Origin: an uncultured Gammaproteobacteria bacterium
GTDB taxonomy: Bacteria; Patescibacteriota; Microgenomatia; Daviesbacterales; UBA10151
DNA: 64,000 nt
Assembly: GCA_964625535.1 (NCBI GenBank)
Contig: CAZVEX010000001.1
Location: 295 to 64,294, forward strand
Direction of reading: 5' to 3'
Shown: positions 11,606 through 42,415 of the stretch, in pieces
How the letters are laid out: each line of letters begins with the position of its first letter
Numbering within the stretch: position 1 is the stretch's first letter
Made by a program: the position numbers and the translations under genes
The notes under the pieces: model-generated
What the model was told of the DNA's origin: nothing
Database searches by the model: none
The model's input: the letters and a program-made list of their open reading frames with translations, nothing else

Positions 11606-12346
11606 ATGATAGTTTCGGCAATAAGATCAAGAAAATTTTTACCTCCCAAAGATGATCTTTGGCAACTTTTATCAGAAAGCATTAAATCGTTGGAGGAAAA
11701 TTGTGTGGTGGCAGTTACTTCCAAAGTGGTATCAATTGGCGAGGGCAGATGCGTATTGACAAAGATAAAAAGCAAAGACGAGCTGGCAATGATGGAAGCG
11801 GATAAGTATATTCCCCGCAAATTAGCTCCTCATGGACTGGTGATGCATACAATTAAAAATAATATTCTGGTAGCATCTGCCGGAGTGGATGAAAGTAACG
11901 GGGCCGGATTTTATATTCTCTGGCCAAAAGACCCCCAATCATCAGCCAAAAAAATTTGGCAGTTTTTAACAAAAAAGTTTAAAGTAAAAAATCTGGGAGT
12001 AATCATAACGGATTCCCGGTTGGTGCCGCTGCGCCGTGGAGTAGTGGGAGTGGCCATTGGCTATTTTGGATTTTTGCCTTTGAGGAATTATCGGGGTAAA
12101 AAGGATTTATTTGGCAGAAAGTTTGAAATGGAAACATCCAATCTTCCTGATAGTTTGGCCACGGCGGCGGTTTTAGAAATGGGGGAGGGAGCGGAGCAAA
12201 CACCGCTTGCTGTCATCTTCGATATTCCTTATATCAAATTTAGCAAAACTTTTTACAGTTTTCAGATTCCCGAAAAAGAAGATATATTTTATCCGCTGTT
12301 ATCTGTTGTTAAGTGGCAGAAAGGCGGGAGCGGAAAAAATCAATAG
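11606..12346 (+). CDS. CofE-like gamma-glutamyl ligase family protein (F420-0:gamma-glutamyl ligase fold)
   Basis: VVAVTSKVVSIGEGRCV...ASAGVDESNGAGFYILWP...GVIITDS resembles the CofE family (PF01996). Confidence 0.55.
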   Translation: MIVSAIRSRKFLPPKDDLWQLLSESIKSLEENCVVAVTSKVVSIGEGRCVLTKIKSKDELAMMEADKYIPRKLAPHGLVMHTIKNNILVASAGVDESNGAGFYILWPKDPQSSAKKIWQFLTKKFKVKNLGVIITDSRLVPLRRGVVGVAIGYFGFLPLRNYRGKKDLFGRKFEMETSNLPDSLATAAVLEMGEGAEQTPLAVIFDIPYIKFSKTFYSFQIPEKEDIFYPLLSVVKWQKGGSGKNQ

Positions 12347-14757: not shown

Positions 14758-16249
14758 ATCTAAATTACTTGTTTTCACCATTTTATTATTTGGAATTGTT
14801 TATAGATTGATGATGACTTGGAATGGCAATTTTCTTTTTAACATGGATAATGCCAGGGACATGGTGGATGTTAGGGAAATGGTGGTTTTGGGGAAGTTAA
14901 GACTCACAGGACCAACTTCTGCCATTGAAGGTTTGTTTAACGGACCAGCCTGGTATTATCTTTTGGCTGTCCCCTTTGTTTTAACAGGAGGAGATCCATA
15001 TGGTTCAATTGTCATGGAAATAGTCTTGTGGGCCATTGGAGGATTTTTCCTGCTAAAACTAACCAGTCGATTTGGCCTGTGGGCAGTAGCAGTTTCAGGA
15101 TCTTTGTGGATTGCTTCCAATTATATAGTTTTACTGACTACTTATGCTTTTAATCCTAATCCGGTGACTTTTTTAACACCAGTCCTGATTTTTGCAATCG
15201 AAAAGTTTATCAAAACCGGGAAAATCATTTATTCAATATTTGTATGGATCTTGGCGGGAGCGTTTTTTAATTTTGAGATGAATTTTGGCATCTTCATTCC
15301 GTTTATCATCATCTTTGCCGTTTTTCTCTATAAAAAATCAATACTTAAAAATCTAAGCTTTTGGCTTTCTTCCTTAGCTTTTGTGGCCGCAGTACTGCCG
15401 CAAATCTTCTTTGATCTAAGGCATCAATTTATTATGTCAAAATCAGTGATTAATTTTTTATCACAAGGTGGAAGCTTCAACCTACTGTCGCGGACAACTT
15501 CAGTTTACGGCAGTTTTTACAGCACTTTAAATGCTACTTTCATGAACCAGTCTATCATTACTTTAATGTTTCTTGGGTTATTCTTTATTTATCTTGTGTC
15601 TTTTCTTAAAAGATTCAAGAGCAAAGAGATTTTTGAAACGTCTTGTCTGTTATTTGTGCTGATACCGTTTGGTGGGTATGTTTTGCTGCCTGTTCAAGTT
15701 AATTCCTGGCATTTGGGTGGGGCAATGGTGGCCCTGATTTTACTGCTAATCATCATACTTAATAAATTATCCAAACTTGGACTTGTGATTTCTTTGTTAG
15801 TTATTTTTTATGCTCTTTTCAATATTGTCCGCTTTTTCACTCACGATCTATTGATACCCAATCAAGATCCATCTCTTTTTAAAAATGAAATTGCTGCCAT
15901 AGATTATGTTTACGAGTATGCCAATGGCAAAAACTTTAAAGTATATACATACCTGCCTTCGGTTTATGATTACCCTTACCAATATCTTTTTTGGTGGTAT
16001 GGTAAGAAAAAGTATGGATACATCCCTGGGGAATACGCCTATTCTCCCAATAAACCAACTTATATTCCCAGTCAGGATAAATTTCAAGGAAAGAAGGATG
16101 GTTTTTCCGGAATGCTATTTTTAATAAAAGAGCCGGATAGAAATGACACTCGCTCCGGTTGGGAAGGCCCATTTGCCAAATTGGAAACTGTAAAAAAACA
16201 AATAGTTGGATCATTAGAGATCGAGATAAAAAGAGAAATCAATCAATAG
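14750..16249 (+). CDS. GT-C-fold membrane glycosyltransferase, tandem paralog of 13276..14757
   Basis: FNMDNARDM...GPTSAIEGLFNGPAWYYLL and the C-terminal WWYGKKKYGYIPGEY motif are present. It overlaps the upstream gene by 8 nt. Confidence 0.6.
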   Translation: MNKSKLLVFTILLFGIVYRLMMTWNGNFLFNMDNARDMVDVREMVVLGKLRLTGPTSAIEGLFNGPAWYYLLAVPFVLTGGDPYGSIVMEIVLWAIGGFFLLKLTSRFGLWAVAVSGSLWIASNYIVLLTTYAFNPNPVTFLTPVLIFAIEKFIKTGKIIYSIFVWILAGAFFNFEMNFGIFIPFIIIFAVFLYKKSILKNLSFWLSSLAFVAAVLPQIFFDLRHQFIMSKSVINFLSQGGSFNLLSRTTSVYGSFYSTLNATFMNQSIITLMFLGLFFIYLVSFLKRFKSKEIFETSCLLFVLIPFGGYVLLPVQVNSWHLGGAMVALILLLIIILNKLSKLGLVISLLVIFYALFNIVRFFTHDLLIPNQDPSLFKNEIAAIDYVYEYANGKNFKVYTYLPSVYDYPYQYLFWWYGKKKYGYIPGEYAYSPNKPTYIPSQDKFQGKKDGFSGMLFLIKEPDRNDTRSGWEGPFAKLETVKKQIVGSLEIEIKREINQ

Positions 16250-23715: not shown

Positions 23716-23876
23716 TGAAAAACGAACTTTATATTTTAACTGTTGCCATCCTTGCCTATCTCATTTGGGCCCTCTGGCACCATCGCCGGGACAAAAGTTT
23801 GACTTTGCCTATTTTGATAGAGTATCTTTTAACTGCTGCTCTTTCTTTAGTTTTATTAACAGGAGTTTTATTGTGA
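23715..23876 (+). CDS. small 53-aa two-TM membrane protein (below the ORF-track size cutoff)
   Basis: ATG overlaps the CAP-gene TGA (tgATG). It translates as MKNELYILTVAILAYLIWALWHHRRDKSLTLPILIEYLLTAALSLVLLTGVLL. Its stop overlaps the rfbA GTG start (ttGTGAaa), and AGGAG lies 8 nt before that GTG. Confidence 0.4.
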   Translation: MKNELYILTVAILAYLIWALWHHRRDKSLTLPILIEYLLTAALSLVLLTGVLL

Positions 23877-24955
23877 AAGCCATTATACCTACAGGCGGTC
23901 GCGGAACAAGGATGCGGCCTTTAACTTTTTCCGCCAATAAACATTTTATTCCCCTGGCGAACAAGCCGATTATTTTTTACCCGATTGAAACTGTAGCGGA
24001 TGCCGGTATTAAAGAAGTAGCCATCACATATAACCCGCAAGGACAGGAGGAAGCAAAAGAGATTTTAGGCGACGGTTCAAGGTGGGGACTAAAATTTAGC
24101 TATGTTTTGCAGGAGAAACCAAAAGGCCTGGCTAACATTTTTCAAGTTTGCGAAGAATTCTTAAATGGGGAAGCTTTTGTCCTGCATTTGGGGGATAATA
24201 TTTTTGTAAACGGCATCAAAAATCTGGTTGATTTTTTTGTTAGTGAGCGCCCAAATGCCCTTTTAACCTATCTTCAACATTCAGACAACAAAAGATTGGG
24301 AGTTCCTTTTTTTGATGAAAAAGGAGACCTCATTCGTTATGTAGAAAAACCGGAAAATCCTCCCAATGACTTTGGCATCCCGGGTCTTTATTTTTTTGAT
24401 CATCATGTTTTTGAGTGCTTTAAAGGGAAAGATGCCATCAAGGCATCAGCGCGGGGGGAGCTGGAAATTTCCGATCCGTATAACTGGTTAATAGATCATG
24501 GCTTTAAAGTTGAGGCAAAGGAGTATGAAGGCAAATGGATGGATCCGGGCAAATTTGATGACTTCTTGGAGGCCAATCAGTATATTTTGCAGCATCAGCT
24601 GGAAGAGAAAAGAGAAAGTGAACCTGACGCCGGCAGCAAGATAACAGGCAAGGTATCAATCGGCAAAGACTGCATTATTAAAAGATCTCTCATTCATGGT
24701 CCGTTAATCATTGGAGACGGCTGTGTGATTGAAGATTCTTCTATCGGTCAATATACATCAGTTGGTGATGTATGCAGAATCAGGGATAGTAAGATAGAAA
24801 ACAGTGTTTTGATGAAAGGCGTCAAGATCCAGGGCGTCAGGGAGCATCCGTTAGCAAGCAGTCTGATAGGGACAGACAGTGAAGTCTTTGGATCCAATGG
24901 TAAAGGGGCAGCGACCTCTCTTTTTGTAGGAGAAAAGTGTAAAATACAAGTCTAG
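23873..24955 (+). CDS. rfbA: glucose-1-phosphate thymidylyltransferase-like sugar nucleotidyltransferase (long form with a C-terminal left-handed beta-helix)
   Basis: VKAIIPTGGRGTRMRPLT is the N-terminal G-x-G-t-R-l motif. The hexapeptide-repeat C-terminus is IIGDGCVIEDSSIGQYTSVGDVCRI. A GTG start with an AGGAG SD is preferred over the in-frame ATG at 23765, whose 36-aa extension is non-protein-like. Confidence 0.75.
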   Translation: MKAIIPTGGRGTRMRPLTFSANKHFIPLANKPIIFYPIETVADAGIKEVAITYNPQGQEEAKEILGDGSRWGLKFSYVLQEKPKGLANIFQVCEEFLNGEAFVLHLGDNIFVNGIKNLVDFFVSERPNALLTYLQHSDNKRLGVPFFDEKGDLIRYVEKPENPPNDFGIPGLYFFDHHVFECFKGKDAIKASARGELEISDPYNWLIDHGFKVEAKEYEGKWMDPGKFDDFLEANQYILQHQLEEKRESEPDAGSKITGKVSIGKDCIIKRSLIHGPLIIGDGCVIEDSSIGQYTSVGDVCRIRDSKIENSVLMKGVKIQGVREHPLASSLIGTDSEVFGSNGKGAATSLFVGEKCKIQV

Positions 24956-25957
24956 ATGAAACTATTAATTACTGGCGGGGCCGGTTTTATCGGCTCCAAT
25001 TTTATACATTATTGGTTGAAAAATCATCCGGATGATCAAATAGTTAATCTGGACGCTCTCACCTATGCCGGACATCTGGAGAGCCTAAAAGACATAGAAA
25101 GAAACCCAAATTATAAGTTTGTTAAAGGAGATATTTCAGACGAGAATGCAGTGAAACAAGTTATGAATGAGGTAGATACTGCGGTGCATTTTGCAGCGGA
25201 ATCTCATGTTGATCGTTCAATTATCAACCCTTTGCAATTTGTCAGGACTAATGTTTTAGGAACGGCTGTTTTATTAAACGCCGCCCTAGATGCTAAAGTT
25301 AAAAGATTTCATCACGTTTCATCGGATGAGGTATATGGTCAGCTTGGGCCAAATGATCCGTCATTTAAGGAAGATACACCTTACAGACCGCGCACCCCCT
25401 ATGCTGCTTCCAAAGCAGGATCAGATCATCTGGTCAGAGCTTATAATCAAACATATGGATTGCCTGTAACCATTACCAATTGTGCCAATAATTTTGGTCC
25501 CTATCAGGATCCGGAAAAGCTGATCCCAAGATTTATCACTAATTTACTGGAAGGTAAAAAAGTGCCTTTAATGGGTAAAGGAGAAAATATCCGGGAATGG
25601 CTTTATGTTGAAGATCATGCAAAAGCCATTGATCTGGTTTTGCAAAAAGGGCAAATAGGAGAAACCTATTTGGTGCAGGGAGAAGAAAAAACAAATTTGG
25701 AGGTGACCAGGAAATTGCTACAGATTTTGGGAATGGATGAATCTATGATAGATTATGTTCCGCACCGCCTTGGGCATGATTTCCGCTACGCCACCGACGG
25801 TGCAAAAGTGACGGCGCTGGGATGGAAAAGGCAGCACAATTTTGATGAGGGTTTGGTAGAAACGGTTCGTTTCTACAAAGAGAACAAATGGTGGTGGGGA
25901 AGCTTAAAACAAGACAGGCCAAATGTGGACAGGGGAGCTCAAAAATCTTATGGATAA
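24956..25957 (+). CDS. rfbB: dTDP-glucose 4,6-dehydratase
   Basis: MKLLITGGAGFIGSNF, the YAASKAGSDH catalytic YxxxK and the ...HVSSDEVYG motif are present. Confidence 0.9.
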   Translation: MKLLITGGAGFIGSNFIHYWLKNHPDDQIVNLDALTYAGHLESLKDIERNPNYKFVKGDISDENAVKQVMNEVDTAVHFAAESHVDRSIINPLQFVRTNVLGTAVLLNAALDAKVKRFHHVSSDEVYGQLGPNDPSFKEDTPYRPRTPYAASKAGSDHLVRAYNQTYGLPVTITNCANNFGPYQDPEKLIPRFITNLLEGKKVPLMGKGENIREWLYVEDHAKAIDLVLQKGQIGETYLVQGEEKTNLEVTRKLLQILGMDESMIDYVPHRLGHDFRYATDGAKVTALGWKRQHNFDEGLVETVRFYKENKWWWGSLKQDRPNVDRGAQKSYG

Positions 25958-26498
25958 AAAAAATATTACAAAAACGTCAATTCCTGGGCTGTTAATTTTG
26001 GAAAGACCGATTTTTGAAGACGAGAGAGGTTTTTTTCGGGAAATTTTTCATATGGATCAGCTGGAAAAAGCACTTGGATTTGAGTTTAAGCCGATTCAGA
26101 TGAATCATTCAAGATCTATGCCGCGGGTTCTTCGCGGTTTGCACGCCGAGCAGTGGAACAAATTGATTTACCCGGTCACCGGGACGGTATTTTTGGCTAT
26201 TGTCGATTTAAGGCCGTCCTCGCCAACTTTTGCCAAAGTGGAAACTTTTACCATAGATGAGAGGCATAGATACGGTTTGTTTATACCCAATGGTTTTGCC
26301 AATTCTGTCTGCGTGGTGGGAGAGGATCCGGTTGATTATATTTATTTGACAGACGCTTACTGGGATGGATCAGATCAAAGGGCCATTGCCTGGGATGATC
26401 CGGATTTGGCAGTAGAGTGGCCAATAAAAGATCCGATTATCTCCCCAAGGGATAGAAATAATCCCAAACTTCGGGATCTGTTTCCGGAGAAATTTTAA
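25950..26498 (+). CDS. rfbC: dTDP-4-dehydrorhamnose 3,5-epimerase
   Basis: IFEDERGFFREIF and ...RGLHAEQWNKLIYPVTGTVFLAIVDLR form the cupin RmlC signature. Start is taken at MDKKNITKT, overlapping the rfbB end. Confidence 0.85.
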   Translation: MDKKNITKTSIPGLLILERPIFEDERGFFREIFHMDQLEKALGFEFKPIQMNHSRSMPRVLRGLHAEQWNKLIYPVTGTVFLAIVDLRPSSPTFAKVETFTIDERHRYGLFIPNGFANSVCVVGEDPVDYIYLTDAYWDGSDQRAIAWDDPDLAVEWPIKDPIISPRDRNNPKLRDLFPEKF

Positions 26499-26530
26499 AC
26501 AGATGGTTGACGAGATAGCCTCCCATTAGA

Positions 26531-26536
26531 TATAGT
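26531..26536 (+). promoter_or_regulatory. -10-like TATAGT located 10 nt upstream of the gmd ATG (possible internal, leaderless-type promoter)
   Basis: Read from the sequence. No SD is present. Confidence 0.3.
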
Positions 26537-26546
26537 AGAGCAAGCT

Positions 26547-27557
26547 ATGACAAAAAGAGCTTTTATTACAGGAATTTCCGGACAAGACGGATCATATTTG
26601 ACCGAAATTTTACTTGATAAAGGGTATGCGGTGGGTGGTTTAATTCGAAGAAACGCCACGGCAGAAATGGGCAATATTGATGATTTCAAAGAAGAAATTA
26701 AAATTTACTATGGCGATTTACAATCCCCCGAATCAATAGCTTTGGCTCTTTTGGATTTTAAGCCGGATGAAATCTATAATCTGGCTTCTTTTTCCTCTCC
26801 TTTGGGATCTTTTGCCGACAAGCTTGGTTCAATTATGATTACGGGAGTGGGAGCCTTTCATGTTTTTGAGAGAGCTAAAGATGTGGTTCCCGAAGCCAAA
26901 ATTTATCAGGCATCCACTTCGGAAATGTTTGGCGCGCCCCGGGAAGTGCCGCAGGACGAGACTACCCCGCTTAATCCCAAAAACCCCTATGCCGTGGCCA
27001 AAGAATATGCCCACAGAATGGCGATCATTGCCAGGGAAGACAGCAAAAATCCCCAGTTTATCTCTTGCGGCATCCTTTTTAACCACGAAAGTCCCCGCCG
27101 GGGCTTGAATTTTGTCACCAGAAAAATTACTGCCGCAGTTGCCTGTATTAAAAATGACAGAAAGGAGGATGTTCCTTTAAACGAGATAGGGGAGCCGATT
27201 GTCCAAAATGGTAAACTTAAACTGGGGGATTTGGGGGCAAAAAGGGACTGGGGCTATGCCCCGGATTATGTTGAGGCCATGTGGTTAATGTTGCAGCAGG
27301 AAAGAGCTGATGATTTTGTGATAGCTACAGGAGAAACCCACACCGTAGGGGAGTTTGCAGAGGAAGCGTTTAAAGTGGTTGGTCTAAACTGGAAAGATTA
27401 TGTGGTGACAGATCCTCATTTTGTTCCGCCGGTTCAAACAGGTCCCTTGCAGGGAAATCCGGCCAAAGCCAAAAAAGTCTTGGGTTGGGAGCCGAAAACA
27501 GCCTTCAAGGATCTGGTTAAAATTATGATTCATGCCGATCTTGCCAAGTTCTCTTAA
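26547..27557 (+). CDS. gmd: GDP-mannose 4,6-dehydratase
   Basis: ITGISGQDGSYL, catalytic YAVAKEYAH and the diagnostic GILFNHESPRRG motif are present. Confidence 0.9.
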   Translation: MTKRAFITGISGQDGSYLTEILLDKGYAVGGLIRRNATAEMGNIDDFKEEIKIYYGDLQSPESIALALLDFKPDEIYNLASFSSPLGSFADKLGSIMITGVGAFHVFERAKDVVPEAKIYQASTSEMFGAPREVPQDETTPLNPKNPYAVAKEYAHRMAIIAREDSKNPQFISCGILFNHESPRRGLNFVTRKITAAVACIKNDRKEDVPLNEIGEPIVQNGKLKLGDLGAKRDWGYAPDYVEAMWLMLQQERADDFVIATGETHTVGEFAEEAFKVVGLNWKDYVVTDPHFVPPVQTGPLQGNPAKAKKVLGWEPKTAFKDLVKIMIHADLAKFS

Positions 27558-28744
27558 TGAAAAAAACAGTTTCGGTTGTCCTCCCCACATATAATGAAAA
27601 AGCCAATATTGAAAAAACCGTTGACAAGGTTTTAGAGCAAGAAAAAAACTTACCCGGATGGGAAATTCACATTGTTATTGCAGATGACGTCAGGTCTTCG
27701 GATGGGACGGAAAAGATAGCCAGGGCAATTTGCCAAAAGAATAAAAGAGTGCATTTTATTAAAGCAAACCCGGGCTTGGGAGTGGGTCTTATTGAGGGTC
27801 ATCGGTATGCAATGGGAAAAATCCGTCCGGATATTTTGGCCCAGCTTGATGCGGACGGTCAGGTGGTAACAAATGTACTGGTCGATCTTGTTCAAACCGT
27901 AGAGCAGGGTTTTGATCTGGCTATCGGATCAAGATTTGTCAGGGGAGGGAAGAATCAACTTTCAATAGGGAGGAGAATTTTTACTTATGGAGCCTCACTT
28001 TTTTGTCGGGTGCTGATGGGGCCTTGGGACGTCAGGGAATTTACCAATTCCGCCAGAGCTTTTACACCCTCTCTTTTCCAAAAATTAAATTTTGACAGAC
28101 TCCCCTGGCGTGAAACCTCTTTTATTATCCAGCCGGCATTTTTGCATGAGGCAATTTTAGCGGGAGCAAAATACAAAGAAGTGCCCCTGATTTTTCGGAA
28201 CCGCCTAGAAGGTTATTCCAAAAATAAAGTTTTTAACTATACGTATGATGTTATTACCTATTGTATAGATGCCAGATTACACAAATGGGGTTTTGATATG
28301 CCCTTCTTTTATTTAACCAGAAGGGCTAAAACAATTGTCAAATTTGGTTTGGTGGGGTTTGTGGGAACATTGGTAGACTTCCTTTTTTACAAGTTATTTA
28401 TCAACCTGGGGGGTTTTCCTCCTGCCACTTCCAAAGGAATTTCCACAGAAGTTGCCATTATTAATAATTTCATTTTAAATAATTACTGGACTTTTCGCTA
28501 CAGAAAAACCAAAACTAATTTCTGGACCAAACTGGGGATTTTTAATCTGGTCAGTTTAGGGGGACTGGTGATTGGGGTTTTAATAGTTAAAGTTTTGCAT
28601 TTATACTATGGAGACGGGTTTGTAGATTTGGGGTGGAGAAGGATTGCTTACAATAACTTTTACTTTTTTGCCACCATCCCTTTTGTAATGACCTGGAATT
28701 TCTTCATGAACCACTTTATCACCTGGAAACATCAGGAAGACTAG
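27557..28744 (+). CDS. fusion of a GT2 polyprenol-phosphate sugar synthase (DPM1/ArnC/GtrB-like) to a C-terminal GtrA-like 4-TM domain
   Basis: VVLPTYNEKANI...IADDVRSSDGT...DADGQ is the GT2 DxD signature. The C-terminal ~130 aa have four helices and NNYWTFR, the GtrA-family motif. Confidence 0.75.
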   Translation: MKKTVSVVLPTYNEKANIEKTVDKVLEQEKNLPGWEIHIVIADDVRSSDGTEKIARAICQKNKRVHFIKANPGLGVGLIEGHRYAMGKIRPDILAQLDADGQVVTNVLVDLVQTVEQGFDLAIGSRFVRGGKNQLSIGRRIFTYGASLFCRVLMGPWDVREFTNSARAFTPSLFQKLNFDRLPWRETSFIIQPAFLHEAILAGAKYKEVPLIFRNRLEGYSKNKVFNYTYDVITYCIDARLHKWGFDMPFFYLTRRAKTIVKFGLVGFVGTLVDFLFYKLFINLGGFPPATSKGISTEVAIINNFILNNYWTFRYRKTKTNFWTKLGIFNLVSLGGLVIGVLIVKVLHLYYGDGFVDLGWRRIAYNNFYFFATIPFVMTWNFFMNHFITWKHQED

Positions 28745-29890: not shown

Positions 29891-32029
29891 ATGTCTATTA
29901 AAAATCTTTCTGTTTTTTTTCCGGCATTTAATGAGGAGGGAAGTATTGAAAATACCGTTATCAAGGCATCTGAAGTTTTACAGGATCTTCGCTTAAATTA
30001 TGAGATTATCATAGTTGATGACGGATCTACAGACAAAACTGCCCAAATTGCTGACAGTTTAGCCAAATCAAATCCTAAAATCAGGGTCATCCATCATTCC
30101 AAAAATTTAGGTTACGGGGAAGCATTAAGGTCTGGTTTTTACAATGCCAAATATGACACCATAGTCTATACCGACGGAGACGGGCAGTTTGATTTCTCGG
30201 AAATAAATAAGTTTTTGGAAAAAATTGAGGATCATGATTTGGTAATAGGCTATCGCATCAAAAGGCAGGACCCCTTTTTTAGAATTTTATTTAAAAAGGG
30301 CTGGAAACTTTCTCTTCTAACCTTTTTTGGATTGACTCTAAAAGATGTGGACTGTGGTTTTAAAATGATCCGCAAATCCGTTTTGGAAAATATCCCCCAT
30401 TTGGAATCCACCAGGGGAGCGATGATTAATGCGGAACTGGCTATTAAGACCAAAAAATACGGATTTACGCTGACCCAGGTGGGCGTAAATCATTACCCAA
30501 GACTTTCCGGTAAGCCAACCGGAGCAAGTATCCGGGTAATCGTTAAATCTTTTTTGGATCTTCTAAGGCTGTGGTGGAAACTTAAAGATCAAAAAATTTA
30601 CTTTATTTCACTGTTGGGAATACTGGTTCTGGCAACATTTTTGAGGCTTTATAAAATTGAGGAATACATGATTTTTTTGGGAGATCAGGGAAGAGATGCC
30701 ATCATTGTTAAAAACATGATTGACGATCTTCATTTTCCTGCCATTGGTCCTCCCACCTCCGTGGGCAATATTTATCTTGGTCCGCTTTATTATTATATGA
30801 TGCTGCCCCCGATGGTTTTGACCAATTTTAATCCGGTTTCGGCGGCGGCGGCGGCGGCTTTGGTTGGGGTGGCCACGGTCTTTCTGGTTTATTATTTGGG
30901 CAAAGTTTGGTTTGGCAGGGGATCCGGTTTGCTGGCTGCATATCTTTATGCAATCAGCCCGGTTACTGTCAATTATTCAAGATTTTCCTGGAACCCCAAT
31001 CCGGCGCCTTTTTTTGCTCTTCTTGCCATTTTGGGCATGATGAAACTGCAAAAAAGCGGTAATTTCCTGTGGCTTATTTTAACAGGTCTAGCTTTGGCTG
31101 CCGCCTTGCAGATGCACTATCTTGCTTTGATTCTGGCAGCAGTTATTGCAACGCTTTGGCTTTATCAGGCCCTGGCGAAAAACAAAAAGAAAAATTTTCT
31201 AAAAGGGACATTGCTTGGTCTGGCAGCTTTTTTGCTGGTTATGTCTCCTCTTTTTTGGTTTGATCTTCGGCACAACTTTTTAAATTATCAGGCCGCTGTC
31301 GCGCTTTTCGGCAAAGGCGAGGCAGTAAGTATAAATCTATTTTCTAACCTTGGCAGGATTCCGGAAATTTATAACAATGCTTTGATTGGAAGATATATGG
31401 CAGGGGAGAATGCATTTTTGGCGGCTTTTTTGTCTTTGACTGTTCTAGCGCTTTTAGTTTATTGGTTTATTAAAAGAAAGATTATTTTGGCAGTTTGGAT
31501 AATAGTTGGTTTATTTGGACTCTCTTTTTATCAAAATGATATTTATGATCACTATCTGGGGTTTTTAAACCCGGCTCCTTTTATCCTCTTGGGATCTTTG
31601 ATCGCTTTAAACAAAAAACGGATAACAGTGGGGCTACTGCTTTTAGTGGCTGTTTTGACAGTTTTGAATTTGCAAAAAAATCCTCTTTTATCCCCTCCCC
31701 AAAACCAACTTCAAAGGACCCAAAATCTGGCCAAATTTATTATCGGGGAATCAAATGACAAACCGTTTAACTTTGCCCTTCTTGCCAAAAATAACTATGA
31801 TTCGGCCTATCAGTTTTATTTGGAAGTTTATGGATATGAGTCCAAAAAATTACCTTTTGAGAAAACTATGCAGCTTTTTGTAGTTTGCGAAGATGAAGTG
31901 TGCGATCCAATTTACAGTCCCAAGCACGAGATTGCGGCTTTTGGCTGGACAAAAATTGAAGAGGAGTGGCAAGTAGAAGGATTAAGAGTTTTTAAACTGG
32001 CGCATAATCCGGAGGAAAACCGTCAATGA
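29891..32029 (+). CDS. bifunctional fusion: an N-terminal GT2 polyprenol-phosphate sugar synthase (DPM1-like) and a C-terminal GT-C membrane glycosyltransferase of the 13276/14750 family
   Basis: The N-terminus VFFPAFNEEGSI...IIVDDGSTDKT...YTDGDGQ is GT2. From ~aa 235 the motifs FLGDQGRDAI...GPPTSVGNIYLGPLYYYMM match those of the 13276 and 14750 proteins. Length is 712 aa. Confidence 0.75.
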   Translation: MSIKNLSVFFPAFNEEGSIENTVIKASEVLQDLRLNYEIIIVDDGSTDKTAQIADSLAKSNPKIRVIHHSKNLGYGEALRSGFYNAKYDTIVYTDGDGQFDFSEINKFLEKIEDHDLVIGYRIKRQDPFFRILFKKGWKLSLLTFFGLTLKDVDCGFKMIRKSVLENIPHLESTRGAMINAELAIKTKKYGFTLTQVGVNHYPRLSGKPTGASIRVIVKSFLDLLRLWWKLKDQKIYFISLLGILVLATFLRLYKIEEYMIFLGDQGRDAIIVKNMIDDLHFPAIGPPTSVGNIYLGPLYYYMMLPPMVLTNFNPVSAAAAAALVGVATVFLVYYLGKVWFGRGSGLLAAYLYAISPVTVNYSRFSWNPNPAPFFALLAILGMMKLQKSGNFLWLILTGLALAAALQMHYLALILAAVIATLWLYQALAKNKKKNFLKGTLLGLAAFLLVMSPLFWFDLRHNFLNYQAAVALFGKGEAVSINLFSNLGRIPEIYNNALIGRYMAGENAFLAAFLSLTVLALLVYWFIKRKIILAVWIIVGLFGLSFYQNDIYDHYLGFLNPAPFILLGSLIALNKKRITVGLLLLVAVLTVLNLQKNPLLSPPQNQLQRTQNLAKFIIGESNDKPFNFALLAKNNYDSAYQFYLEVYGYESKKLPFEKTMQLFVVCEDEVCDPIYSPKHEIAAFGWTKIEEEWQVEGLRVFKLAHNPEENRQ

Positions 32030-32796: not shown

Positions 32797-34254
32797 GTGG
32801 ATTTTTTGCTCAAACACCGAAAAGAAATTATAGTCCTTGCTTTTTTAGCCGCCCTCTACCTTATCTTAAGGCTACCTAATTTGACTTTGCAGCCGGTTTT
32901 TGCCGATGAAGCGATCTATATCCGCTGGGCCCAGGTGATGAGATCCGAGCCAACATTGCGATTCTTGCCTTTATCCGACGGTAAGACTCCCCTATTTATG
33001 TGGAGCATGATTCCCCTATTTAAAATCTTTGAAGACCCCTTGTTTGCGGGAAGATTTTTATCTCTGACGAGCGGCTTTGCAACTTTATTGGGAGTATTTG
33101 CATTGACTTGGAAAGCTTTTAACTCAAAGGCTGCCTTTTGGGCAGCTTTACTTTATGCAATAGTTCCTTATACGGTTTTTTTTGACCGGATGGCCTTGGT
33201 TGATTCCATGCTGTCGGCTTTAACTGTCTGGGCCTTATTTTTTGCCATACTTCTTGCTAAAAAAGTTAGGCTTGATTTGGCTTTTATTTTAGGATTTATT
33301 CTGGGAGGAGCCTGGCTTACCAAAACTCCGGCTGTTTTAAATCTGCTGCTTTTACCTACCACCATACTTGCTTTCAAAAGAGTAAAAAAAGATAGGTTTA
33401 CTCTTTTGAAATTATTTTTATTTTGGGCAGTGGCAATACTAATTGCTTTGGCTGCGTACAATGCCTTAAGATTGGGTCCAAATTTCCACCTTTTATCTTC
33501 AAGAAATGCAGATTATGTTTTCTCGCCCCTTGAACTTATCGGCAGACCCCTGGACCCTTTTATACCTCATTTGCGGGATATTGCCGACTGGTTCCCCAAA
33601 CTGTTAACCTGGCCGGTGATTGGGTTTATGGTTTATGGTATATGGTTTATGGTTAAGACAAAAAATAAATTAGGGTGGGTAATCCTTCTTTGGGGGCTGA
33701 TACCTTTACTTTTGAACATGGCATTTTTGAGGACTTTTACAGCCAGATACTTACTCTCTTCCATACCCCTATTTTTAATTTTAGGAGGATATGGGATCGG
33801 AAAAATTTCAAATGGAATTCTAACGCTGATACTGGTTATTCTTGTGATGCTCATGCCACTTAAATTTGATTACGAATTGTTGACTAATCCTCCACCAGAG
33901 TCGCTACCCCGGGAGGAAAGGCAAGGTTATTTTGAACAGTGGACAGCGGGCTACGGTTTCAAGGAAATTGCCCGGTTTCTAATCGAACAAAAAGCCAAAG
34001 GCTCTGTGGTGGTGGGGACCGAAGGATTTTTCGGGACTTTGCCCGACGGGCTTTATATTTATCTTGATAAAACCGGTATTGCGGTTGTTTCCTCAACTGC
34101 CACCATATCAGCAGAGCTTAGAGAAGCAGCGCAGAACCATAAGACTTATTTTGTGGGTAACAAAAGCAATCTTGAAAATATAGGAGGAGTAGAATTAGTT
34201 AGAGAATATCCTAAGGTTGGGTCTGATGCCACTGTTTTATACCAGGTAAGATGA
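32797..34254 (+). CDS. GT-C membrane glycosyltransferase (ArnT/PMT-like, with a DE motif in the first outer loop); GTG start
   Basis: PVFADEAIYIRWAQ in loop 1 resembles the ArnT/PMT catalytic Asp-Glu. It has 12+ TM helices plus a C-terminal domain. Confidence 0.6.
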   Translation: MDFLLKHRKEIIVLAFLAALYLILRLPNLTLQPVFADEAIYIRWAQVMRSEPTLRFLPLSDGKTPLFMWSMIPLFKIFEDPLFAGRFLSLTSGFATLLGVFALTWKAFNSKAAFWAALLYAIVPYTVFFDRMALVDSMLSALTVWALFFAILLAKKVRLDLAFILGFILGGAWLTKTPAVLNLLLLPTTILAFKRVKKDRFTLLKLFLFWAVAILIALAAYNALRLGPNFHLLSSRNADYVFSPLELIGRPLDPFIPHLRDIADWFPKLLTWPVIGFMVYGIWFMVKTKNKLGWVILLWGLIPLLLNMAFLRTFTARYLLSSIPLFLILGGYGIGKISNGILTLILVILVMLMPLKFDYELLTNPPPESLPREERQGYFEQWTAGYGFKEIARFLIEQKAKGSVVVGTEGFFGTLPDGLYIYLDKTGIAVVSSTATISAELREAAQNHKTYFVGNKSNLENIGGVELVREYPKVGSDATVLYQVR

Positions 34255-35867
34255 AAAAAACTCTTTTGATCTTAGCTTTAATAACTTTTCCCTCGCTTTT
34301 TCCTTTCTTTAACCCCCAATTTTTTTATACGCAGGATCATATTTTTATAGCCAGGTTGCAACAGATGAGTACCGCCCTGTCCGATGGCCACTTTCCCGTT
34401 CGATGGGCAGCTGATCTTCGTTTTGGCGAGCCGCTTTTTAATTTTTATGCCTCCCTGCCCTATTACCTCGGGGCATTGATAAAACTTTTAGGGTTTAACT
34501 ATATTTGGGTAGCAAAAATCCTTTTTATTTTATCAAGCTTTTTATCTGCCCTGACAATGTACATTTTTTGCCGCAAGCTTTTTAGTCAAAAATCTTCATT
34601 TTTGGCAGTTGCTTTCTACATTTGGGCTCCCTACAGAGCAGTTGATCTTTATGTCAGGGGCGCCCTGTCCGAGGCTTTTGCTTTTATCTTTTTTCCGCTG
34701 ATTTTTTATGCCTCTTTGCTGTTATCTCAAAAAGTAACTTGGGCGAGGATTTCCTTTCTTTCTCTGTCCCTGGGGGGGTTGTTCCTGACGCATAATGTGA
34801 CAACCCTAATCTTTTTGCCATTTTTATTTCTTTGGTGGCTATATTTGTGGATCAAACAAAAAAACTTAAAAGTAGTACTACCTTTTTTCTTCTCGTTTGC
34901 TTTAGGTTTGGGGTTGTCGGCAACCTTTCTTCTTCCGGCAGTTTTGGAAAGAGAGTTGATCCAAACAAAATATTTGCTGGTGGGTTATTTTGATTTTAGG
35001 GCCCATTTTGTGGCATTTTATCAGTTTTTCTCTCCTGTCTGGGGGTACGGAGCATCGCTGTGGGGACCAAAAGACGATATGTCGTTTCAGGTCGGTCTAG
35101 CCCATTGGGCGCTAGTTTTACTTGCTCTGGTTGTAGGATTTATCAAACGAAGCGATAAAAAATTTCTGCTTCTTACTTCGTTTTTATTTTTCAGTTTCTT
35201 TTTGTCTATTTTTTTACAGCACAACAGATCCGCTTTCGTGTGGGAAGCTATCCCTTTAATGGCTTTTATTCAATTTCCCTGGAGATTTTTGGCAATTTCA
35301 GTTTTTACTGTTTCTTTATTGGGAGGGGTAGCGATAGAGCATTTAAAATGGAAGTCTAATATTATTTTTTTTGTGGCGCTTGCCGCAACAATTCTGATTA
35401 ATTTTAACTATTTTAAGCCAAGAAATTATGTGGAGGATGCCTTTTTTGATAAATTTTTAAATAAAGAAAGCATGCACAGGGGAGTGGATTTGACCAAAGA
35501 TTATTTCCCCGTCTGGGTGAAGTTTGACAGGGTAGAGTATTTCCCAACTCCCAGGGCCAATACCGGAGAAATTGAAGTTTTAAGCTTTGAAAAAAAGACC
35601 GCCGCAGCCAAAGGAGAGATTAAGGTTTTATCCGAAGCGCAAATAGAAGTGCCAATTACTTATTTTCCCGGCTGGGAAGTTAAAGCCAACAATGAGCGGG
35701 TAAATTTATCAGAACCTTCTTTACAGGGACTGATTACTTTTAAGCTTCCTAAGGGGGAATACCAAATAGATTTGGCATTAAAAGATACTCCTGTTAGAAT
35801 AATAGGAAACCTGGTGAGTTTTGCAACCATTTTATTGCTTCTTATAACTTATGCTAAATCTCGCTAA
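34251..35867 (+). CDS. YfhO / PTPS-related-family large membrane protein (putative GT-C glycosyltransferase)
   Basis: N-terminus TQDHIFIARLQQM...HFPVRWAADL, then ~12 TM helices and a C-terminal beta-rich domain. It is a paralog of the next gene. Confidence 0.5.
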   Translation: MKKTLLILALITFPSLFPFFNPQFFYTQDHIFIARLQQMSTALSDGHFPVRWAADLRFGEPLFNFYASLPYYLGALIKLLGFNYIWVAKILFILSSFLSALTMYIFCRKLFSQKSSFLAVAFYIWAPYRAVDLYVRGALSEAFAFIFFPLIFYASLLLSQKVTWARISFLSLSLGGLFLTHNVTTLIFLPFLFLWWLYLWIKQKNLKVVLPFFFSFALGLGLSATFLLPAVLERELIQTKYLLVGYFDFRAHFVAFYQFFSPVWGYGASLWGPKDDMSFQVGLAHWALVLLALVVGFIKRSDKKFLLLTSFLFFSFFLSIFLQHNRSAFVWEAIPLMAFIQFPWRFLAISVFTVSLLGGVAIEHLKWKSNIIFFVALAATILINFNYFKPRNYVEDAFFDKFLNKESMHRGVDLTKDYFPVWVKFDRVEYFPTPRANTGEIEVLSFEKKTAAAKGEIKVLSEAQIEVPITYFPGWEVKANNERVNLSEPSLQGLITFKLPKGEYQIDLALKDTPVRIIGNLVSFATILLLLITYAKSR

Positions 35868-37548
35868 ATCACACAAAGAATTTGTTATTGGTTTAATGCT
35901 GACTCTAGCTTTACTTTGGCCGCTTTTTTGGGCTCCCTTTTTTTCCCATCATGACGATGTTCAGGTCATTAGACTTTACGAGATGGATAAATGCGTCAAA
36001 GACGGACAACTGCCCTGCCGCTGGGTACCTGATTTAGGCGGTTTGTACGGCTATCCTATTTTTAACTACTACGGCCCTCTTCCATATTATTTTGGTGAAA
36101 TTTTTTATTTGCTAACTGGCAACCTGATTTTTTCCGTCAAGACAATGTTTGCCGTATCTTTTGTCGCCTCCTACGTATTTATGTTTCTTTTGGCCAGAAA
36201 ATTTTGGGGAAAGATGGGAGGCGCTCTATCGGCGATATTTTATAGTTTCGCCCCATATCATGCAGTAAATTTATATGTTAGGGGAGCCATGGGGGAGCTG
36301 TGGGCTTTAATGTTTTTTCCAGCTATATTATGGGGTTTGGTCAGATTGCAGGAAAAGTTAAGTATTGCCAATCTGGTCATAGCAGCACTTTTTATGGCAG
36401 CACTTTTCACCTCGCATAATTTATCAACCATACTTTTTCTGCCGGTAATTTTAATTTGGATTTTGGTTTTATATTTCCACAAAAGAGTTAAAAAATTTAT
36501 TCTCTACAGCGGCCTGGCTATTTTTTTGGCAGCTGTTGTTTCTTCTTTTTACCTTTTGCCGATGGTTTTGGAAAAAAATTTGGTCCATGTTGACACCACC
36601 ACATACGGTTACTTTTCCTATACGGAACATTTTAAAGGATTTAGGAAATTGCTGGAGCGGTCATGGGGTTTTGGTTCCTCCGTCAGAGAAGTGCCCGGAG
36701 GGGAAAAAGACGGACTTTCCTTTCAGATCGGCTGGGTTCATCTTCTGGGTTGGATTCTGGCTCTCTATGTGGCTAAACGATTTTGGGCGTCTCAAAAAAA
36801 TTTGAGTTTGATCATTATTTTTTCATCACTTGTTATTTCTTTTGCCGGTTTCATGATTAATCCCAGATCTGAATTTATATGGAAGATGGTTGAACCCTTA
36901 AAATTTTTGCAGTTTCCCTGGAGATTTTTACTCCTGATTATTTTCTTTATTTCCTTTATAGCGGGAAGCGCTGCCCTATTAAAAAGCAAAAAAATTATTA
37001 TTTCTATGATTGTGGCGGTTTTCCTTGTAAATTTTTTCTATTTTAGACCGGAAAAATTTATTAATGTGACGGATCAGGAGCTTTTATCAGGCGAACACTG
37101 GGACAGGCAAATTAAAAGATCTATTTTTGATTATTTGCCCATTTTTGCCAAAGAGCCGCCCGCAGAACTCGCCAAAGAAAGGTATCAAATTTTAACAGGA
37201 GAAACAAAAATAATGAATTTTCAGGAAGGCACCAACTGGTTTAAATTTAAAGCGGAGGTAACTTCACACTCGATCATCCGTCTTTCCCAATACTATTTTC
37301 CCGACTGGAAGATAACGATTGATGGAAAAGGGGCGCCCATAGAGTATAAAGATAATACTTTGGGTCAAATGACAATTATCTTAGGGAAAGGCAATCATCA
37401 AATAGAGGGGAGATTGTATGATACGCCGGTTCGCACTATTGCTAATTTTGTCACAATTTTTGGATTAGGAGTGACAGTTCTACTGTTTTTGATCCAATTT
37501 CCGGCAGTTCGAAAATGGATTTTATATTACAGAAAGGGAATTAATTGA
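35851..37548 (+). CDS. YfhO / PTPS-related-family large membrane protein, paralog of 34251..35867
   Basis: SHHDDVQVIRLYEM...QLPCRWVPDLGG parallels the upstream paralog. APYHAVNLYVRGAMGELWALMFFP matches APYRAVDLYVRGALSEAFAFIFFP. Confidence 0.5.
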   Translation: MLNLAKSHKEFVIGLMLTLALLWPLFWAPFFSHHDDVQVIRLYEMDKCVKDGQLPCRWVPDLGGLYGYPIFNYYGPLPYYFGEIFYLLTGNLIFSVKTMFAVSFVASYVFMFLLARKFWGKMGGALSAIFYSFAPYHAVNLYVRGAMGELWALMFFPAILWGLVRLQEKLSIANLVIAALFMAALFTSHNLSTILFLPVILIWILVLYFHKRVKKFILYSGLAIFLAAVVSSFYLLPMVLEKNLVHVDTTTYGYFSYTEHFKGFRKLLERSWGFGSSVREVPGGEKDGLSFQIGWVHLLGWILALYVAKRFWASQKNLSLIIIFSSLVISFAGFMINPRSEFIWKMVEPLKFLQFPWRFLLLIIFFISFIAGSAALLKSKKIIISMIVAVFLVNFFYFRPEKFINVTDQELLSGEHWDRQIKRSIFDYLPIFAKEPPAELAKERYQILTGETKIMNFQEGTNWFKFKAEVTSHSIIRLSQYYFPDWKITIDGKGAPIEYKDNTLGQMTIILGKGNHQIEGRLYDTPVRTIANFVTIFGLGVTVLLFLIQFPAVRKWILYYRKGIN

Positions 37549-37549
37549 T

Positions 37550-39004
37550 ATGGATCCTACCGAGGAAATCAATATTGAAATGGTTAAGCGAAGAACAGTC
37601 AGCGGAGCAGCCATTTTAACAGTTAGAACTTTTTTGATGCAAATAGTATCTTTAATAGCGACCGCGCTTTTAACGTTTTTTTTAAATCCTGCGCAATATG
37701 GAACTTTTTTCTTGGTTTCCGCAGTTATTAGTTTTTTGGCATATTTTGGCGACATAGGTTTTGCGGCCAGCTTAATTCAAAAAAAAGATAAATTGCAGGA
37801 TATTGAACTACGAACTATTTTTACTACTCAACAAACACTGGTGTTTTTTCTTATCGCCATAGTTTTTATATCTACTCCTTACTTAAAAAATTTTTATCAT
37901 TTTGACGATAGCGCAATCTATCTTCTTTGGGCTCTTGCTTTTTCGCTTCTTCTTTCATCACTGAAGACTATACCGACTGTTTTATTGGAGAGAAAACTGG
38001 AGTTTAATAAATATGTTATTCCCCAGATTCTGGAAGTTTTAGTATTTAATGCTACTGCGGTATATCTTGCTTGGCGAGGTTTCGGGGTGACTAGTTTTAC
38101 TGTGGCAGTAATACTGCGGGGGGTTGTGGGATTGCTTTCAACATATGCAGTTTCGCCGTGGATTCCCGGGTTTGCATTTTCTCCCCCTTCACTTAAATCT
38201 TTGCTCAAGTTTGGGATTCCTTATCAAGTAAACACTTTTCTTGCCATGATTAAGGACGACGGAATGACTCTTTTTTTAGGAGGGATTTTAGGATCCTCGG
38301 GGATAGGTCTTTTGGGATGGGCTCAAAAATGGGCTTTTTCACCCTTGCGTTTTTTTATGGACCAGGTGATCAAAGTAACTTTTCCCGCTTTTTCCCGGTT
38401 GCAGGATGACAAAAAAGAGCTATCCCTAGCTTTGTCAAAATCAATCTTTTTCATTTGTCTTTTGGTCTTTCCGTCCTTGGCTTTTTTGATACTAGTTGCT
38501 CCAACGCTGGTAGAAATAATTCCAAAGTACAGTAAATGGAGTCCGGCGCTTTTGGCTTTGACTTTTCTTTCGGTCACCTCCGCTTTGGCAGCGATAACTA
38601 CTCCCATAACTAACGCTTTCAATGCAATTGGAAAAATATCAGTCACTTTTAGATTAATGATGATGTGGACCGTTTTAACTTGGCTTTTTGTACCTGCTTT
38701 GGCGCTGATTTATGGGGTAAGTGGCGCAGCTTTTGGCTTTAGCTTGGTAGGAGCGAGTTCGATTATTGCAATGATTCTAGCCTTAAGATATATAGAGATA
38801 AATTATTTGGAGATTATTGGTAAGCCTGCAGTTGCAACGGTGACAACGGGAGGAGTAGTCTTTCTGATAAGAAGCGTTGTCTCAACCTCGCTATTACAAG
38901 TCGTTTTGATGGCGATGGGCGCGCTTATCGTATACGCCCTGACCGTTTTTATAATAGAACCTAAAATTTTATTTTACCTTAAATTGAGAAAACAAAATGT
39001 TTAA
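37550..39004 (+). CDS. Wzx-like oligosaccharide flippase (MOP/polysaccharide biosynthesis protein family)
   Basis: 484 aa with 12-14 TM helices. An N-terminal cytoplasmic stretch is followed by the composition typical of Wzx/RfbX. Confidence 0.6.
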   Translation: MDPTEEINIEMVKRRTVSGAAILTVRTFLMQIVSLIATALLTFFLNPAQYGTFFLVSAVISFLAYFGDIGFAASLIQKKDKLQDIELRTIFTTQQTLVFFLIAIVFISTPYLKNFYHFDDSAIYLLWALAFSLLLSSLKTIPTVLLERKLEFNKYVIPQILEVLVFNATAVYLAWRGFGVTSFTVAVILRGVVGLLSTYAVSPWIPGFAFSPPSLKSLLKFGIPYQVNTFLAMIKDDGMTLFLGGILGSSGIGLLGWAQKWAFSPLRFFMDQVIKVTFPAFSRLQDDKKELSLALSKSIFFICLLVFPSLAFLILVAPTLVEIIPKYSKWSPALLALTFLSVTSALAAITTPITNAFNAIGKISVTFRLMMMWTVLTWLFVPALALIYGVSGAAFGFSLVGASSIIAMILALRYIEINYLEIIGKPAVATVTTGGVVFLIRSVVSTSLLQVVLMAMGALIVYALTVFIIEPKILFYLKLRKQNV

Positions 39005-42413: not shown

Positions 42414-42415
42414 TG

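Follow-up and report, generated by a model that had tools for sequence, protein, structure and literature searches.

The 64,000-nucleotide stretch of contig CAZVEX010000001.1 analysed here (assembly GCA_964625535.1; hereafter the window) contains a gene, 29891, that joins a predicted polyprenyl-phosphate sugar synthase of glycosyltransferase family 2 (GT2) to a predicted membrane glycosyltransferase of the GT-C type in a single chain. Open reading frames (ORFs) are named throughout by their lower coordinate in the window, and the features discussed are listed in Table 1. The covalent join of synthase and GT-C domain is real, conserved and apparently undescribed; its parts and its logic are familiar. 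The fused protein is, we think, probably a bifunctional membrane enzyme that joins two steps of extracytoplasmic glycosylation of the Gtr/Arn type.

The fused gene and its two halves

A preliminary description of the window had reported one continuous 712-aa polypeptide that starts with a complete GT2 domain resembling DPM1 and ArnC, with a DxD motif, and runs on into a GT-C membrane domain. The ORF is indeed uninterrupted from its ATG start to its stop codon, and three Pfam models match it above their cut-offs: Glycos_transf_2 at aa 7–167 (E = 1e-31, 110.6 bits; cut-off 23.3 bits), PMT_2 at aa 298–456 (E = 5e-10, 40.2 bits; cut-off 26.1 bits) and PMT at aa 309–457 (37.5 bits; cut-off 22.7 bits). 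An identical protein is found in NCBI on a contig of 192,519 bp (P0001). The motifs of the GT2 half are VDDGS (D44) and DGDGQ (D95, D97 and Q99); those of the GT-C half include FLGDQGRDA (D265, R268 and D269), GPPTS (286–290) and YLGPLYYY (295–302). All of these residues are invariant across 43 full-length homologues, the set over which invariance in the fusion was judged.

The assignment of the N-terminal half rests on sequence and on predicted structure. Its top seven sequence matches in the PDB are the dolichyl-phosphate mannose synthase (DPMS) of Pyrococcus, three ArnC entries and three GtrB entries, which together cover aa 3–254. The match to the Pyrococcus DPMS (5mlz) has an E value of 1e-16 in this search and of 6e-17 where aa 5–229 are aligned, and ArnC (9hwj/9bhc/8vxh) and GtrB (5eke) are matched as well. 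When the residues are aligned, TDGDGQ of the fusion corresponds to MDADLQ in Pyrococcus DPMS and to LDADLQ in ArnC, and VDDGS corresponds to VDDDS. An AlphaFold2 (AF2) model of the fusion, built from 43 sequences, has a predicted local distance difference test score (pLDDT) of 83.4 and a predicted template-modelling score of 0.77. Foldseek places ArnC, GtrB and DPMS enzymes at ranks 1–15 for this model, in which aa 129–146 and 214–231 form amphipathic interface helices. In NCBIfam this half is matched best by models of polyprenyl-phosphate sugar synthases, namely ArnC, PgfS, AglJ, a Dol-P-hexose transferase and PpgS, with scores far under every equivalog cut-off (ArnC, the highest, reaches 72 bits against 529). 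Judged by these comparisons, the half described earlier as a complete synthase domain is just that – a complete GT2 of the DPMS/ArnC/GtrB type, with the corresponding activity predicted.

The membrane half is further removed from characterized enzymes. In Foldseek, the membrane part of the model matches ArnT (5f15) with E = 9e-8 and a template-modelling score of 0.55 on the target, and it also matches ALG12, Pmt4 and the catalytic subunits STT3, PglB and AglB. Searched as a single sequence against the PDB, the GT-C half has no sequence match. A profile of the wider GT-C family, aligned from 79 diverse members including two stand-alone proteins of the window (13276 and 14750), reaches yeast Pmt2 (E = 9e-4) and AglB (E = 3e-3), both weakly. 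The acidic residue of the first loop is a hallmark of GT-C enzymes. Among the 79 family members D265 is invariant, and conservation is 90% or more for R268 and D269; D265 and D269 are likened to the catalytic Asp of ArnT and PMT by their position in the loop, not by structural alignment. The GT-C half is a distant and distinct branch of the ArnT/PMT-like GT-C enzymes, and its activity is predicted.

The preliminary description had also stated that this half carries the same motifs as 13276 and 14750. The relationship holds, with E = 1e-12 and 29% identity over 214 aa for 13276 and E = 1e-15 and 24% identity over 401 aa for 14750, but the motifs are similar, not identical: 13276 has FHYDMARDA, GPPTS and GPLYYY, and 14750 has FNMDNARDM, GPTS and GPAWYY.

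Transmembrane (TM) helices were counted from the AF2 helices and hydrophobicity and then oriented by the positive-inside rule, with helix boundaries that we set. The fusion is predicted to have 11 TM helices, with the N-terminus inside and the C-terminus outside. With the GT2 domain set as cytoplasmic, the inside loops carry 8 lysine or arginine residues in 14 and the outside loops 6 in 130, in agreement with the rule. Of the 33 invariant residues of the GT-C half, 28 are on outside loops and the other 5 are inside the TM boundaries, adjoining outside loops. The C-terminal 117-aa domain, with its C666/C671 pair, is placed outside. In this model the presumed GT-C active site faces outward; it consists of the loop 1 residues D265, R268 and D269 and of WNPNP, QMHY, D458/H461 and D553/H554. 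The fusion thus modelled is topologically sound, with the nucleotide-sugar-dependent domain in the cytoplasm and the presumed GT-C site on the exterior, which is the arrangement supposed in the preliminary description. Modelled alone, the C-terminal domain (aa 596–712) has a pLDDT of 76; searched against the PDB, it matches no fold significantly (the lowest E value is 0.066), so it offers no clue to the acceptor.

Fused and split forms

The same fusion is found widely in relatives of the source organism. One genome per GTDB species was scanned, and 48 loci encode both a GT2 half and a GT-C half; the two form a single ORF in 41 of these. The nearest relatives are metagenome-assembled genomes (MAGs) of Daviesbacteria, with 79–81% identity (L001 and L002). 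The protein database holds more than 100 clusters at 62–81% identity, nearly all of them full length (~705–740 aa) with both domains, and their source names, where given, are mostly Candidatus Daviesbacteria or Patescibacteria.

Some of these records call for comment. In the MAG locus L002 (287–2992, 81% identity) the match starts at 287 and the open frame at 381, and NCBI annotates a 592-aa "GT39 family protein" (P0016); the GT2 part there may contain a local frameshift or an assembly error of that MAG. Many GTDB representatives, from binchicken and other co-assembly MAGs, are titled "uncultured Gammaproteobacteria bacterium" (L003, L006, L014, L015 and others). Their loci are 60–65% identical to this Daviesbacteria gene and have the same neighbourhood, and the record titles look taxonomically wrong.

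The two halves are adjacent genes in the other 7 of the 48 loci (L039, L040, L041, L043 and L044; L049, from Woesebacteria; and L051, from Paceibacterota). In these split loci the GT2 ORF ends after ~232 aa, directly past the amphipathic helix (..LDLLKLWLKL, then the stop codon), at the same boundary at which the fusion passes from one domain to the other, and the split GT2 genes encode no TM helix. The GT-C gene is in another frame, with its own ATG, and overlaps the end of the GT2 gene by 4–46 nt (for example in ATGA or TAATG). An N-terminal tail ending in NKLEF precedes TM1 in 5 of the 7 split GT-C genes. In the clade that includes the window, the linker WWKLKDQK is conserved and TM1 follows at once. 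Other fused lineages have differing linkers (L026, L027 and L028; L035 and L036; L038), and KLEF is retained in three fused loci (L027, L035 and L036). Compared with the window protein, the GT2 halves of the split loci (50–65% identity) are far more conserved than the GT-C halves (36–53%).

A neighbour-joining tree of the GT-C domain, computed without support values and used solely to show that the fused forms are not monophyletic, contains one large fused clade that includes the window and at least 6 other fused lineages among stand-alone and split members. Because the fused forms are scattered in the tree and their linkers differ, fusion or fission at this junction has taken place repeatedly. 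Repetition is to be expected, since the stop and start codons overlap and a small frame change is enough to join the genes or to separate them. The fusion would derive from an operon pair with overlapping stop and start codons, and more than once.

The overlap also provides the one argument for an artefact, in which an assembly or sequencing frameshift joined two genes artificially: with 4–46 nt shared between the split genes, a one-base error could mimic a fusion. This is almost certainly not the case. Independent assemblies from 41 species show the same continuous ORF, as do more than 100 clusters of the database; within its clade the linker WWKLKDQK is conserved, and the main fused clade lacks the ..NKLEF extension with which split GT-C genes begin. 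The artefact was rejected on this conservation across genomes, not on reads.

The architecture had been called uncommon, and this is true in part. Fused and stand-alone forms were counted among the 150 best-matching representatives, taken from clusters at 50% identity. Only 8 of these are complete fusions, with a few junction-spanning fragments in addition, while more than 100 are stand-alone GT-C proteins of ~500 aa (covering aa ~231–708) and ~14 are stand-alone GT2 proteins of 235–380 aa. The fused state is thus a minority within the GT-C family, yet it is the rule among the Daviesbacteria-like genomes recovered, and comparable fusions recur in other phyla. The argument that a fusion of this kind indicates a shared pathway (Rosetta-stone evidence) is strengthened by the 7 genomes in which coupled adjacent genes are split at the same boundary and by independent GT2/GT-C fusions elsewhere.

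Comparison with known systems and other fusions

The components of the fusion are among those of the three-component systems GtrB/GtrA/Gtr*, ArnC/ArnEF/ArnT, CsbB/GtcA/YfhO, GacI-J/GacK/GacL and PgfS/PgfM1-2. In these systems the polyprenyl-phosphate monosaccharide that a DPMS-like GT2 makes in the cytoplasm is used outside by a GT-C enzyme, and the fusion combines domains of the same two types. A GtrA-like domain and a Wzx-type flippase are found in its neighbourhood. Unlike in these systems, the synthase and the GT-C transferase are one chain, in which the synthase part lacks TM helices. The GT2 half is not an orthologue of ArnC, PgfS and their kin, as its equivalog scores are far under the cut-offs. 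It shares with Pyrococcus furiosus DPMS (5mlz) and with GtrB and ArnC the DxD..Q motif and the interface helices (aa 5–229), while those enzymes end in their own 2–4 TM helices (GtrA-like in DPMS), where the fusion has the 11-TM GT-C domain. With the GT-C enzymes of the ArnT, PMT and ALG types, the membrane half has in common the fold, the PMT_2 match and the acidic residue in the first outside loop. It differs from them in that sequence similarity is very weak, the motifs FLGDEGRDA, GPPTS, YLGPLYYY, WNPNP and DHY belong to the family of the fusion, and the C-terminal domain has no recognisable fold.

The nearest described precedents join a synthase to a partner that is not a GT-C enzyme: Ppm1 D1–D2 and GacJ–GacI. 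In M. tuberculosis Ppm1 (Rv2051c), the polyprenyl-phosphate mannose synthase D2, which lacks TM helices, is fused to the multi-TM domain D1, and the two halves are two interacting operon genes in M. smegmatis, M. leprae and C. glutamicum (PMC3485146). Fusion in one species with separate genes in relatives is the pattern seen for the window fusion as well, while the membrane domain is N-terminal in Ppm1 and C-terminal here (PMC3485146). The Pfam membrane matches of the window fusion are just PMT_2 and PMT, with no domain of the Ppm1 D1 type. D1 of Ppm1 is an Lnt-type acyltransferase, not a GT-C enzyme. Like Ppm1, the adjacent and sometimes fused genes for GacI and GacJ are an experimental precedent for reading such an arrangement as a sign of a complex (10.1101/180810).

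In Haloarcula hispanica, Agl22, a DPMS-like GT2, is functionally paired with the membrane protein Agl23, which is involved in the use of hexose-phosphate-dolichol. In proteoliposomes, lipid-linked Man5GlcNAc2 was translocated by purified Agl23, which also rescued yeast rft1-delta (PMC11182771). Agl22 and Agl23 are separate proteins, and Agl23 is credited with flippase activity, not with transfer. The membrane half of the fusion was compared with Agl23 through the family model, to which it has a weak match.

Natural fusions of a GT2 domain to GT-C-type domains also occur outside the Patescibacteria. In Ktedonobacteria, proteins of ~1135–1140 aa with GtrA, GT2, PMT_2 and YkcB_C domains form at least 15 clusters (e.g. 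L054: 480–3893, plus strand; L077: 7398–10799, plus strand). By its domain content, this protein puts all three components of a three-component system in one chain. Intermediate states occur there too, for example a GtrA–GT2 protein with the GT-C domain in the next ORF. Fusions of GT2 with PMT_2 are found in Planctomycetota, in Rosistilla (P0382, whose source is a complete genome and which UniRef also contains) and in Gemmataceae (P0391). Other combinations are GT2 with YfhO (P0257 and P0372, 1008 and 1297 aa), GT2 with a PIG-V-like domain (P0384) and GT2 with another PMT_2 domain (P0192). A class of very long proteins (~1280–1380 aa) includes P0337, which has GT2, several GT-C-type domains (GT87, PIG-U and ALG-type) and PMT_2, and P0342, which has a cellulose-synthase-like GT2 and PMT_2. 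Just the GT2 part of these fusions from other phyla resembles the window protein, with 19–25% of the query covered. By this comparison, the fusions in Chloroflexota and Planctomycetota are independent events, not orthologues.

Database labels of such fusions are generic: "glycosyltransferase", "GT39 family protein" or, in JGI, "ArnT-like glycosyltransferase/putative flippase GtrA". The searchable full-text literature yielded no description of a natural GT2–GT-C fusion, which is not proof of absence. The GT39 protein of Caldicellulosiruptor (Cbes_1864) was considered as a candidate; it is not a fusion.

Proposed mode of action and alternatives

According to the bifunctional reading, the GT2 domain, on the cytoplasmic face, would load polyprenyl phosphate with the sugar of a nucleotide sugar. 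Its C-terminal amphipathic helix would lie on the membrane and lead through a 3-residue linker into TM1 of the GT-C domain. Once the polyprenyl-phosphate sugar has reached the outer leaflet, the GT-C domain, with its outward-facing conserved acidic and histidine residues, would pass the sugar to an envelope acceptor, and the small outside C-terminal domain probably aids acceptor binding. The GT-C half would double as the membrane anchor of the GT2 half, because GT2 proteins of this kind have no TM helix in the split versions or in the paralogue 32026. We infer that the lipid-linked sugar used by the GT-C half is the one that the attached GT2 half makes. As to the sugar, solely the neighbouring rml and gmd genes hint at a 6-deoxyhexose, for instance rhamnose.

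The independent fusions, which pair DPMS-like GT2 domains with other GT-C families and in some cases add GtrA, speak for this reading. Several observations weigh against it. The low equivalog scores leave the sugar specificity of the synthase half unassignable. There are 3 DPMS-like GT2 genes in the window against at least 14 genes of the GT-C type; each donor must therefore serve several enzymes, and the fusion does not necessarily denote an exclusive pair of donor and consumer. The paralogues 13276 and 14750 have no adjacent GT2 gene. The fused polypeptide has no flippase, and the Pfam scan finds no GtrA domain in it; flippase-like proteins are found nearby, as the GtrA domain of 27557, which is fused to another GT2, and as the Wzx/MOP protein at 37550.

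The same facts lend themselves to a reading in which the GT-C half is an anchor or activator only, the membrane partner of a synthase that lacks TM helices, and the donor is common to several GT-C enzymes of the island. It would fit the absence of TM helices from the split GT2 proteins and from 32026, the excess of GT-C genes over synthases, and the stand-alone paralogues, which speak against exclusive pairing. There are also precedents in DPM1/DPM3, Ppm1 D1/D2, GacJ/GacI and WpsB/WpsA, natural fusions included. The anchor partners known so far, however, are small or unrelated proteins, while the partner here is a full GT-C domain with invariant outward residues of a catalytic type and a conserved outside domain, and the independent fusions always join GT2 to a GT-C-type domain. 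We regard a purely anchoring role as possible, if unlikely; anchoring and bifunctionality could plausibly both hold.

It is also conceivable, though improbable, that the fusion joins a synthase to a flippase, with the PMT-like half translocating the polyprenyl-phosphate sugar instead of transferring it, or besides doing so, in parallel to Agl22/Agl23. The model for the Agl23 family, TIGR03663 ("flippase activity-associated"), matches aa 244–434 with E = 1e-9 and matches 32797 too; the fused polypeptide lacks a flippase domain; and purified Agl23 translocated a lipid-linked glycan (PMC11182771). The family match scores only 37.7 bits against a cut-off of 126.25, and membership in TIGR03663 was rejected on that score. 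Proteins of the TIGR03663 family resemble PMT enzymes in their N-terminal part and in having a DE motif. The closest folds to the membrane half are those of transferases (ArnT, ALG12 and Pmt4), and its conserved polar residues on the outer face and conserved outside domain are transferase-like. The Ktedonobacteria fusions add a separate GtrA domain, suggesting that the GT-C part does not substitute for a flippase there. A build-up of lipid-linked sugar is seen also in a mutant of a GT-C transferase, GacL, so that this phenotype is not diagnostic of a flippase (10.1101/180810).

A self-contained machine, in which the GT-C domain both moves the polyprenyl-phosphate sugar of its own GT2 across the membrane and then transfers the sugar, with no separate flippase, seems to us improbable; in its favour, the domain is distantly similar to the PMT-like Agl23 with its translocation in vitro. 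If it were true, GT-C-type domains would become candidates for the long-sought scramblases of polyprenyl-monophosphate sugars of the Dol-P-Man or Dol-P-Glc (dolichyl-phosphate mannose or glucose) type. To our knowledge, the inner-to-outer leaflet step for Dol-P-Man and Dol-P-Glc in eukaryotes is still unassigned.

The bifunctional reading matters for the annotation of GT-C enzymes, which are numerous and mostly orphan, especially in Patescibacteria, and for which the donor of each is rarely known. Being conserved, and replaced in some genomes by pairs of overlapping genes, the fusion provides a sequence-based rule by which one GT-C family is paired with one synthase family. It also implies that synthase and transferase are together in the membrane, which in the three-component systems has been assumed more than shown. 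With both active sites on one chain, the protein would be a convenient object for studying leaflet-to-leaflet transfer of a polyprenyl-phosphate sugar. The Ktedonobacteria GtrA versions and the YfhO and PIG-V-like versions show that architectures of this kind form a general class, which has been overlooked and is not peculiar to a single genome. The significance is limited in that all of this is prediction and concerns uncultured organisms.

Genomic neighbourhood

The fused gene lies in a cassette that is conserved across the 48 loci (Table 1).

Table 1. Features of the fused gene and of its surroundings in the window
Feature	Coordinates	Strand	Basis or remark
Whole fused gene	29891..32029	+	Single ORF, ATG start, 712 aa plus stop codon, internal stops absent
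Predicted GT2 (GT-A fold) polyprenyl-phosphate sugar synthase module, aa 1-231, cytoplasmic	29891..30583	+	PF00535, PDB sequence matches, Foldseek
DGDGQ metal/nucleotide-sugar binding motif (D95, D97, Q99)	30173..30187	+	Aligned to DPMS/ArnC, invariant in 43 homologues
Fusion junction: end of amphipathic helix (..LDLLRLWWKLK), linker DQK, start of TM1	30530..30604	+	Break site in 7 split genomes
GT-C membrane domain, aa 235-595, 11 predicted TM helices, N-in/C-out	30593..31675	+	Pfam PMT_2/PMT, AF2, Foldseek, positive-inside rule
First extracytoplasmic loop, aa 254-314: D265, R268, D269, GPPTS, YLGPLYYY	30650..30832	+	Conservation and topology; catalytic/donor-binding role presumed
Extracytoplasmic C-terminal alpha/beta domain, aa 596-712 (117 aa), invariant C666 and C671	31676..32026	+	AF2 secondary structure
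ATGA overlap of fusion stop and next GT2 start	32026..32029	+	Read from sequence; GGAGGA at 32011-32016
RmlA, RmlB, RmlC-like and Gmd-like sugar-nucleotide genes	23765..27557	+	NCBIfam; upstream in 32-37 of 48 loci
GT2 + GtrA/DPMS_TM fusion, architecture of the Pyrococcus DPMS type	27557..28744	+	PF00535 + PF04138; upstream in 42 of 48 loci
Divergent short GT-C-like membrane protein, 375 aa	28741..29868	-	Abuts fusion or split pair in 44 of 48 loci
Stand-alone DPMS/PgfS/ArnC-like GT2, 252 aa	32026..32784	+	34% identical to N half of fusion; homologue in 48 of 48 loci
GT-C (PMT_2), different subfamily	32797..34254	+	Pfam PMT_2 E = 9e-11; downstream homologue in 40 of 48 loci
Tandem stand-alone paralogues of the GT-C half of the fusion	13276..14757 and 14750..16249	+	Alignment; no adjacent GT2
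Two YfhO/PTPS_related GT-C proteins	34251..35867 and 35851..37548	+	Conservation partial
MOP/Wzx-type flippase	37550..39004	+	Conservation partial

Upstream, the sugar-nucleotide genes score 343 bits for RmlA (NCBIfam cut-off 320), 449 for RmlB (365), 141 for RmlC (156) and 313 for Gmd (415). About half of the RmlA-type matches across the 48 loci are just 35–40% identical. The neighbouring 27557 had been described as a second DPM1-like GT2 fused to a GtrA flippase-like domain, and the Pfam matches bear this out; 4 of its 42 homologues are merely 27–29% identical. The GtrA domain of 27557 is a candidate source of flippase-like function.

Gene 28741 is on the minus strand inside a run of plus-strand genes. 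Its start is only 22 nt from the start of the fusion, and at its 3' end it shares 4 nt with the end of 27557. This arrangement is kept in 44 of the 48 loci, so that promoters must be situated within coding sequence. The protein matches the NCBIfam family AZOBR_p60025 (glycopolymer formation) with E = 1e-10, under the cut-off, and some of its homologues carry PF13231, with source names of GT39, Gpi18-like or ArnT-like. Considered as the missing flippase, it found no support; its family resembles another short GT-C.

Downstream, homologues of 32026 mostly start within a few bases of the stop codon of the fusion. No hydrophobic segment or TM helix was found in the 32026 protein. Together with 32797, whose protein has remote similarity to the C-terminal half of the fusion (E = 3e-4), it makes up a GT2/GT-C pair that is not fused. 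Mutual identity among the three DPMS-like GT2 domains of the cassette is only 32–34%.

The surrounding region, 10135–62526, is an unusually dense glycosylation island, in which a Wzx flippase and several genes of the GT2 and GT1 families are found as well. At least 14 ORFs of the window are of the GT-C type: 10135 (minus strand), 13276, 14750, 29891, 32797, 34251, 35851, 44431, 48779, 49893, 51373, 52944, 54593 and 55989. Gene 28741 (minus strand) is GT-C-like and comes in addition to these. In this large envelope-glycosylation island, a few lipid-sugar synthases must feed many GT-C enzymes.

Two long plus-strand genes, 38997–42413 and 42413–44434, encode proteins of 1138 and 673 aa with ~15–17 hydrophobic segments each; neither is matched by a Pfam model at E <= 0.01. 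An ORF at 11606–12346 (plus strand), located between GT-C and epimerase genes, matches the F420-0:gamma-glutamyl ligase family (PF01996, E = 2.5e-35) in this small-genome lineage.

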